Part shown: in pieces, positions 1 through 1,858 of the stretch
How positions within the stretch are numbered: the first letter of the stretch is position 1
How the letters are laid out: the number at the start of each line of letters is the position of its first letter
Source of the DNA: Escherichia coli
GTDB taxonomy: Bacteria; Pseudomonadota; Gammaproteobacteria; Enterobacterales; Enterobacteriaceae
Assembly (NCBI RefSeq): GCF_003334335.1
Contig: NZ_QOWQ01000067.1
Direction: 5' to 3' (one strand)
DNA: 9,120 nt
Position numbers and translations under genes: made by a program
Notes under the pieces: generated by a model
What the model was told of the DNA's origin: nothing
Databases searched by the model: none
What the model saw: only the letters and a program-made list of their open reading frames with translations

Positions 1-43
1 TGAATCAGGAGAGCAGATTACCCCCTGGATCTGATTTCAGGCG

Positions 44-1858
44 TTGGGTGTGGATCACTATTGCACCGTTCGTGACAATCAGCACGGAAACAAGATCAGT
101 CTGAATGAACAGCAAAGAAAGGCGTTTAACAAACTGGTCAATAATGGCCCTCTCTCCCTGCTTCAGGGGCCACCGGGGACCGGTAAAACCGAGTTCATCG
201 CGGCCTTTGTTCACTACCTGATCGAGAAACAGAATACCAAACGCATTTTACTGGTCAGCCAGTCACACGAGGCTGTGAATACAGCGGCCGAGCGTATCAG
301 AAAGCATTGTTCCCGGCTTGGTACAGAGTTGGACGTTGTCAGGTTCAGCAACCGAGAGGGAGCCGTTTCCCCTGGCTTAAAAGATGTGTACTCACACGCA
401 ATCACAACAGAGAAGCGCGAACTCTTCAATGCTGAAATTAAGTACCGTGTTGAAGCATTGAGTGAAGCTATTGGTCTGGAGCCGGGATTTATTTCGGGTG
501 TTGTTCTTGCAGAGCTCAATTTGTTCAGACAAATCGATCACCTTGAGAAATTGCTCTATCAGGTTAACAATTTAACGGATTCAAATGAGAGCAATGAACT
601 GAAAGATATTGCAGTCGAACTCGATTTTTCCATCCGCTCTAAGCTGAGTCAGGAGTATGGGATTAACTTGGACAAAGGCGTGAAGGTCTCAGCAGCAAAA
701 GACATTCTGATTTCCAAGCTATGTACAGAGTATGGTGTCAGACCTGATGAGGCAAGACGAGTAAAAGCAATAGCTAAAATATCCCGTGATATGCAGGATG
801 CTATGTCGGGAGAGCGAGTGAACCTGGACGAGTTTTATTCGCGCTCCAGACAGTTAGTGGCTGGCACATGCGTTGGTATTGGACAAGGGCACATTGGCAT
901 TCAGGAGAATATCTATGACTGGGTGATTATTGATGAGGCGGCGCGCTCGATTTCAAGTGAGCTGGCCATTGCAATGCAGTCAGCCCGGCGTGTCCTGTTG
1001 GTGGGTGACCACATGCAGCTTCCTCCATTGTACTCAGATGCCCACAAGGCGGCATTAGCGAGGAAGCTGGGTATCAATAACTCCCGCACTGAAATTGACG
1101 AGGTATTACGAAGTGACTTTGCCCGAGCCTTCAACTCTGCTTATGGTGCGCAGAAGAGTGCAGCTTTGATGACCCAGTATCGTATGGCTCCACCGATTGG
1201 TAATCTCGTATCGAAGACGTTTTATGACGGGAAGCTTCTGAATGGAGTACGGGCAATTCCGGATGTCTATCAGCAAGCTCCGGAAGCGTTACGTAGCGTT
1301 GTAACCTGGCTTGATACTGCTAATCAGGGCCACCGAGCACATCATCTTGAAGATCGCGGAACAAGCATTTACAACCGATGTGAAGCTGACGAGATTATTT
1401 CTGTTCTTAAACAGGTGTCAGAGAATGAAGAATTTGTCGCTAAGCTTTCAAAACTTGTTAGCAAAGATGAAGCCGCTATCGGCGTGATATGTATGTATGC
1501 CGAACAAAAGCGGTTACTCCGTCAGAAATTCAATCAGGAAATCTGGAGCGAGGGATTTAAGGACATTGTTAAAATTGACACTGTTGACAGTTATCAGGGA
1601 AAGGAAAATCGGATCATTATCCTGTCACTGACGCGTTCGGATAAGCAGCATAGCCCAGGTTTCTTACGCGTTCCAAACCGTATAAATGTCGCGATGTCAC
1701 GCGCAATGGATCGACTGTTGATTGTGGGTAATGCCGATATCTGGAAGGGAAACAATAAAGAATTGCCATTAGGCTACGTTGTAAGTTATATGGCTGCGCG
1801 AGGTCAGGAAGCTGGATACAGGTTCCTCTCTGCTCAGCAGGGAGGCAAAAAGAAATGA
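44..1858 (+). CDS. Superfamily 1B helicase, Upf1/DNA2-like (AAA_11/AAA_12-type core)
   Basis: 604-aa ORF with the full ordered SF1 motif set: Walker A GPPGTGKT (nt 167-190), motif Ia LLVSQSHEAV, Walker B DWVIIDEAA (nt 917-943), motif III GDHMQLPP (nt 1004-1027), motif IV QYRM (nt 1175-1186), motif V VDSYQGKE (nt 1584-1607), motif VI NVAMSRA (nt 1685-1705). Start is uncertain: TTG at 44 or GTG at 50, no in-frame ATG for ~245 codons, no clear SD, and an in-frame TGA at 32-34. Confidence 0.85.
   Translation: MGVDHYCTVRDNQHGNKISLNEQQRKAFNKLVNNGPLSLLQGPPGTGKTEFIAAFVHYLIEKQNTKRILLVSQSHEAVNTAAERIRKHCSRLGTELDVVRFSNREGAVSPGLKDVYSHAITTEKRELFNAEIKYRVEALSEAIGLEPGFISGVVLAELNLFRQIDHLEKLLYQVNNLTDSNESNELKDIAVELDFSIRSKLSQEYGINLDKGVKVSAAKDILISKLCTEYGVRPDEARRVKAIAKISRDMQDAMSGERVNLDEFYSRSRQLVAGTCVGIGQGHIGIQENIYDWVIIDEAARSISSELAIAMQSARRVLLVGDHMQLPPLYSDAHKAALARKLGINNSRTEIDEVLRSDFARAFNSAYGAQKSAALMTQYRMAPPIGNLVSKTFYDGKLLNGVRAIPDVYQQAPEALRSVVTWLDTANQGHRAHHLEDRGTSIYNRCEADEIISVLKQVSENEEFVAKLSKLVSKDEAAIGVICMYAEQKRLLRQKFNQEIWSEGFKDIVKIDTVDSYQGKENRIIILSLTRSDKQHSPGFLRVPNRINVAMSRAMDRLLIVGNADIWKGNNKELPLGYVVSYMAARGQEAGYRFLSAQQGGKKK

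Follow-up and report, generated by a model that had tools for sequence, protein, structure and literature searches.

The helicase ORF that seems to lack a start at the left end of the window (the whole 9120-bp stretch of Escherichia coli DNA analysed here) can be identified with high confidence as the 3′ fragment of mkoA, truncated by an IS100 element at the end of a draft contig and followed by an mkoB gene that is also broken. A copy of IS100 appears to have inserted into codon 1060 of mkoA, which has 1652 codons when intact and belongs to a type I Mokosh system on a genomic island of E. coli. Read leftwards over the junction, the mkoA frame would then enter the non-coding left end of IS100, where it meets a chance GTG, a chance TTG and then a TGA. 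The 604-codon ORF would accordingly be a promoterless 3′ gene fragment and not a gene with an unusual start. The mkoB gene was probably inactivated separately by a TGG-to-TGA change, and the defence system would be dead in this lineage. The junction, the identity of the DNA on both sides of it, the lengths of the homologs and the SNP in mkoB are direct observations.

The Helicase ORF Has No Clear Start Signals

The sequence features listed in the original prediction are all present. In frame 2, the window reads ESGEQITPWI, a stop (TGA, 32-34), FQA and then LGVDHYCTVRDNQ..., and after the possible starts TTG (44) and GTG (50) the frame is open to position 1858. The TGA is separated from TTG 44 by 9 nt, and the upstream "ORF" visible in the window amounts to only 10 codons. 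The first in-frame ATG is at position 791, 249 codons past position 44 (about 245 codons without ATG had been claimed), and the Walker A motif GPPGTGKT occupies residues 42-49 counted from TTG 44 (nts 167-190), as close to the putative start as had been stated. No clear SD sequence was found ahead of TTG 44 or GTG 50, as predicted, and a promoter and terminator scan of positions 1-400 found neither, including no sigma-70-like site. The two further in-frame stops that had been grouped with the first are also there, a TGA at 2869-2871 and a TAG in rsmI at 3600-3602.

The Left End of the Window Is a Terminus of IS100

Positions 1-77 of the window are the terminal 77 nt of IS100, a member of the IS21 family, and correspond to its left end, upstream of istA. 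They are identical at 77/77 bases (E = 9e-37) to positions 8756-8832 of the strain 300444 locus (L002), which are the end of an annotated 1954-bp IS100 (L002 6879-8832). That copy has the terminal inverted repeats TGTCA(A/C)...GATCCAC and is flanked by a 5-bp target duplication, CGCTC; it is annotated with istA and istB and is 100% identical to annotated plasmid copies of IS100, a name that the element bears in hundreds of plasmid records. In the window, the IS segment ends with ...GTGACA at base 77, and colinearity with mkoA begins at base 78. With identity to the terminal sequence and an abrupt end at the terminus, positions 1-77 are an IS100 terminus. At this end, istA and istB are oriented leftwards, on the minus strand, away from the helicase; the istA start lies at nt 87 of IS100, and the window stops 9 nt short of its start codon. 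The TGA at 32-34, TTG 44 and GTG 50 all fall within the non-coding end of IS100, read antisense, and the first 11 of the 604 codons of the helicase ORF are derived from the IS.

These observations bear on the proposal that a separate upstream gene ends at position 34 and is translationally coupled to a helicase starting at TTG 44 or GTG 50. The 9-nt spacing does resemble that of coupled genes, but the complete IS100 keeps the upstream frame open over no more than 49 codons, which lie antisense to the start of istA; no promoter-like site was seen in positions 1-400; and none of the homologs listed, truncated or partial entries aside, begins at a position corresponding to TTG 44 or GTG 50. Coupling is contradicted by the upstream frame being IS100 antisense DNA, and its probability is negligible; no upstream gene is present before the helicase ORF.

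When window positions 1-3000 were compared by megablast with 5,426 complete E. coli genomes, near-identical matches numbered in the hundreds, nearly all of them beginning at about query base 71, and the E. coli matches listed carry one "AAA domain-containing protein". The other genomes match from base 71 and not from base 78 because the motif CGTGA is shared by chance between IS100 and mkoA. The single record that covers base 1 does so in three pieces, one of which is an IS100. Two minus-strand ORFs at positions 5-214 (69 aa) and 5-115 (36 aa) straddle the IS100/mkoA junction, thus spanning two unrelated DNAs, and are almost certainly spurious.

The Helicase ORF Is the 3′ Part of a Much Longer Gene

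From base 78 onwards, the window is colinear with E. coli NCTC86 from position 6008 of its locus (L001); the two differ at one nucleotide as far as position 1858 and by four substitutions as far as about 8.4 kb. The intact mkoA of NCTC86 (L001 2830-7788, 4959 nt) encodes WP_078046171.1, a protein of 1652 aa annotated as "AAA domain-containing protein". Base 78 falls on the second position of codon 1060 of this gene, and the window ORF is in the same frame, so that positions 78-1858 on the plus strand hold mkoA from codon 1060 (partial) to codon 1652 and the stop. With PADLOC, the MkoA model PDLC03921 matches the window ORF (E = 6e-293) over fragment residues 14-600 and profile positions 1026-1603 of 1607, whereas the intact NCTC86 protein is matched (E = 0) over residues 1-1648 and profile positions 5-1603 of 1607. 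The window ORF does not match the model over its full length, which includes the kinase-containing region, and this copy is a fragment of an MkoA family member, not an intact one.

What the fragment does retain is a complete Upf1-like SF1 helicase core with Walker A (COG1112), seen in Pfam as AAA_11 (residues 20-329, E = 3.5e-38) and AAA_12 (residues 356-564, E = 1.3e-42); its native start, promoter and N-terminal domains are gone. The missing part contains a NERD domain (residues 53-135) and kinase-like stretches (270-446 and 577-657), identified by NERD and Pkinase matches, and it shows a further resemblance to the kinases PglW and MAD6. Because IS100 landed about 20 residues upstream of the core, the fragment gives the impression of a self-contained helicase, with a Walker A that is "too close" to the start.

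The original prediction had also raised the possibility of a longer ancestral protein, made of an N-terminal domain and the helicase and split by a nonsense codon at 32-34. Its first half holds: intact homologs are about 1650 aa long, about 1060 of these residues forming an N-terminal extension with NERD and kinase-like regions. A homolog search with the N-terminal 1061 residues of MkoA, followed by the 18 IS-derived residues of a predicted fusion product (see below), agrees with such an extension, since the best 120 homologs (from Enterobacterales, Vibrio, Aeromonas, Shewanella and others) all align to this N-terminal part and nearly all are about 1650 aa in length. Its second half does not hold, as the break is the IS100 junction at 77/78. 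A nonsense split would require the N-terminal domain to lie directly upstream in frame, and the long extension of the homologs would suit it; however, bases 1-77 are IS100 and share only the chance CGTGA with mkoA, and the intact genes read ...DTDFARYDRED upstream of the junction, not ESGEQITPWI followed by a stop. The alignment with NCTC86 rules this split out, leaving it with practically no probability.

The Junction Recurs in Independent Assemblies

The window is the whole of contig QOWQ01000067.1 (9120 bp) of GCA_003334335.1, and it begins 77 nt inside IS100. Sister contigs were found by an exact-protein look-up with the truncated MkoB. The identical junction, ...CGTTCGTGACA joined directly to ATCAGCACGG, is present in at least four other assemblies (L006-L009), namely GCA_002190205.1 and the Logan assemblies of SRR1815430, SRR7230379 and SRR30938087; these contigs, too, have their first base within the IS terminus and include 20 or 29 nt of it, and L010, a fifth contig, has its first base 2 nt past the junction. 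The presence of the same junction in four other assemblies therefore indicates that the insertion is real and common to a lineage. Among complete genomes the junction was not seen: a megablast of window positions 30-130 against 5,426 complete E. coli RefSeq genomes gave no match covering at least 80% of the query, and an exact scan with the 44-mer of the junction through a collection of species-representative genomes gave 0 matches.

It might be argued that the IS100 stretch is an assembly error, added to the end of a contig to which it does not belong. The junction is indeed at a contig end, and 77 nt, the exact length of the IS overlap, is a k-mer size often used by assemblers. Against such a chimera, the identical junction is found in the four other assemblies, which come from other samples, have IS overhangs of 20 and 29 nt and include Logan assemblies as well as a second NCBI assembly. 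We reject a chimera, given this recurrence across independent assemblies, and consider it very improbable. The contig would instead break here because the assembler could not extend through a multicopy IS, and the 77-nt overhang fits a k-mer of 77.

Two of the sister contigs, L008 and L009, match the window no further than base 3708, a little downstream of the rsmI relic, and diverge wholly beyond it, which suggests a further insertion, a rearrangement or a repeat boundary at that position.

The Far Side of IS100: Simple Insertion or Deletion

Directly after the IS end, mkoA DNA resumes with the 5 nt ATCAG (78-82), which map to L001 6008-6012 in the uninterrupted NCTC86 sequence and would be one copy of the target duplication if the event was a simple insertion. 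In that case, the far junction is predicted to read ...GACCGTGAAGATCAG joined to TGTCAACGACGG, going from mkoA codon 1061 into the other end of IS100 with ATCAG duplicated. The partner contig would carry ...GACCGTGAAGATCAG and then TGTCAACGACGGATG, and the predicted fusion product would consist of MkoA residues 1-1061 followed by CQRRMKSDPLISPPTAQY. We consider a simple insertion with duplication of ATCAG probable.

A less likely course, which still deserves appreciable weight, is a deletion or rearrangement mediated by IS100, for example by recombination between two IS100 copies. It would produce the same right-hand junction, with the 5′ 3.2 kb of mkoA deleted or located elsewhere, and would differ from a simple insertion only beyond the IS. 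Exact-sequence look-ups of the fusion product predicted for simple insertion, made with the NCTC86 and the majority K602 N-terminal alleles and two starts for each, returned no record, which speaks weakly for a deletion; a look-up via the upstream Gp2-like gene led mostly to long contigs with an intact mkoA and to no partner contig. Deletions do occur in the island, as in L021, where mkoA is truncated to 398 aa (7227-8423) and is followed by unrelated genes. On the other hand, the look-ups were for exact sequences only and would miss a product altered by one SNP or cut by another contig end. In addition, the IS100 in mkoA of strain 300444 is a clean insertion with a 5-bp duplication. Whether the far side arose by insertion or by deletion, the explanation of positions 1-60 is unchanged.

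mkoB Is Interrupted by a Separate Nonsense Mutation

Type I Mokosh is a two-gene anti-phage system in which the helicase gene also carries a Ser/Thr kinase domain, and in the systems tested, defence was lost on mutating the ATP-binding site of the helicase or the second gene (Millman et al., bioRxiv 10.1101/2022.05.11.491447). In the window, the adjacent mkoB is present, but it does not match the MkoB model over its full length. Its 5′ part (1855-2871, plus strand, 338 codons) ends at a premature TGA at 2869-2871, which replaces Trp339, and the remainder (2872-3291, plus strand) continues in the same frame, with 2953-3291 listed by the ORF finder. The 5′ part matches the MkoB model PDLC03923 in PADLOC (E = 2e-114) over profile positions 4-334 of 454, and the remainder matches positions 366-453 and is colinear with the intact 478-aa gene of NCTC86, whose product matches the model with E = 1.9e-151. 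The change itself is at base 2871, an A in the window where NCTC86 and strain 300444 have a G (TGG), and the replacement of Trp339 by a stop is the sole amino-acid difference across the 478 codons of mkoB.

The same Trp339-to-TGA allele also adjoins an intact mkoA of 1656 aa in three loci (L003, L004 and L011), whose haplotype shows 7-9 further differences from the window over about 3 kb. Two histories would account for this: the nonsense change may be older than the IS100 insertion and have since recombined, or it may have arisen on two occasions.

The third in-frame stop is of yet another kind. Outside the Mokosh locus, positions 3450-3704 (plus strand) hold a relic of rsmI, roughly the C-terminal third of RsmI (positions 202-253 of 287 in the NCBIfam model), with the internal TAG at 3600-3602. 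The equivalent stretch in NCTC86, 300444 and 2313 is annotated as "internal stop; incomplete; missing N-terminus". The suggested recurrence of in-frame stops thus dissolves into three unrelated events, one an IS insertion, one a SNP that turns TGG into TGA, and one the decay of rsmI into an old relic. Three such stops within 3.6 kb could in principle point to programmed recoding, by read-through or an alternative code. Yet the first stop is IS DNA, the second is a SNP absent from NCTC86 and 300444, and the third lies in a relic that is also missing the N-terminal two-thirds and carries a pseudogene label in all three of the annotated genomes examined; moreover, the other large ORFs of the window (an enterotoxin, a malY-like gene for a MalY/PatB-like protein, and malX) match genes annotated as intact in NCTC86. 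Each stop having an ordinary cause of its own, recoding is rejected as exceedingly unlikely.

The Mokosh System Is Probably Lost in This Lineage

Because the mkoA fragment has no promoter or start of its own and mkoB is truncated, we infer that the Mokosh system is non-functional in this lineage, and the locus, judged by its sequence, appears to be a remnant and not a working system. The mkoA fragment is probably not expressed. Since the 3′ fragments of mkoA in strains 300444 and 2313 are marked as pseudogenes, and since the TTG and GTG starts available here come only from the IS, the fragment is likely to have lost its function.

There is a slim chance that TTG 44 or GTG 50, both borne by IS100, are in fact used and that the fragment acts as a free-standing Upf1-like helicase core with residual or new activity, in which case the core may be released from the NERD/kinase regulatory region and from MkoB. 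A weaker version of the same idea, at the same low probability, is that there is selection against Mokosh. The independent knock-outs counted in E. coli comprise IS100 at two sites, one IS3-family insertion, a deletion, and the nonsense allele of mkoB, which occurs on two haplotypes, and these repeated losses may reflect selection and not neutral decay.

The chemistry of the effector may also depart from what is generally described. The MkoB of Mokosh has been described as a PLD-family nuclease. A Pfam search with the intact MkoB (478 residues, L001 7785-9221) found no significant domain and no PLD, and a search for the HxK motif found none in the 478 residues of this PDLC03923 subtype. Hence, the effector chemistry of PDLC03923-type MkoB may differ from that of a PLD nuclease.

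Mokosh Lies on a Mobile and Partly Degraded Island

Upstream of mkoA (L001 1604-2645; L003 469-4375) are genes for AlpA, a DUF3987 protein and an "inovirus-type Gp2" protein, and a frameshifted remnant of a TOTE-type archaeo-eukaryotic primase. From these genes it follows that Mokosh sits in a mobile, partly degraded integrative element. The island also holds relics of the chromosomal aga/rsmI neighbourhood (window 3450-3704 and 8547-9120; L024 368-1192), namely the rsmI piece and fragments of a class II fructose-bisphosphate aldolase gene, followed by an agaR gene that starts 14 nt beyond the right end of the window. The right contig end may therefore also lie at a repeated sequence, a second copy of agaR. 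An ungapped comparison with NCTC86 and 300444 loses register at position 8426, upstream of malX, which indicates a small intergenic indel there.

The independent disruptions of mkoA, together with the mkoB nonsense allele beside an intact mkoA, suggest ongoing decay of this island-borne system.

Implications for Annotation

The 604-codon ORF should be labelled a pseudogene fragment (mkoA without its N-terminus, disrupted by IS100), and not as a helicase with a non-canonical start, and the stops in the window are unfit as evidence of recoding. The lineage should be scored as Mokosh-negative despite its strong matches to the helicase and MkoB HMMs. Across E. coli, this defence gene has been disrupted independently and by several different routes, which adds a small data point on the turnover of defence islands.

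Comparison with Known Systems

IS100 and type I Mokosh are both already known, and a defence gene disrupted by an IS at the end of a draft contig is a routine finding. IS100, an IS21-type element with an istA transposase and an istB helper ATPase, is found in E. coli, Yersinia, Klebsiella and Shigella, and positions 1-77 of the window match its left terminus base for base, including ...TGACA. Compared with the full element, the window holds the terminal 77 nt only, and istA and istB, the other end and the target duplication lie outside it.

The closest complete counterpart of the locus is the type I Mokosh of NCTC86, where the gene order is the same, mkoA overlaps mkoB by 4 nt and both PADLOC models are matched from end to end. 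By comparison, the copy in the window is without MkoA residues 1-1059, and its MkoB stops at residue 338 of 478. Strains 300444 and 2313 carry the same gene on the same island, split by an IS100 and by an IS3-family element (near the 3′ end of mkoA, L013 5470-6683), respectively, into a 5′ ORF and a 3′ pseudogene that PGAP labels "helicase, missing N-terminus". The insertion sites differ, at about codon 1350 in 300444, about codon 1545 in 2313 and codon 1060 in the window, and mkoB is intact in both of those strains.
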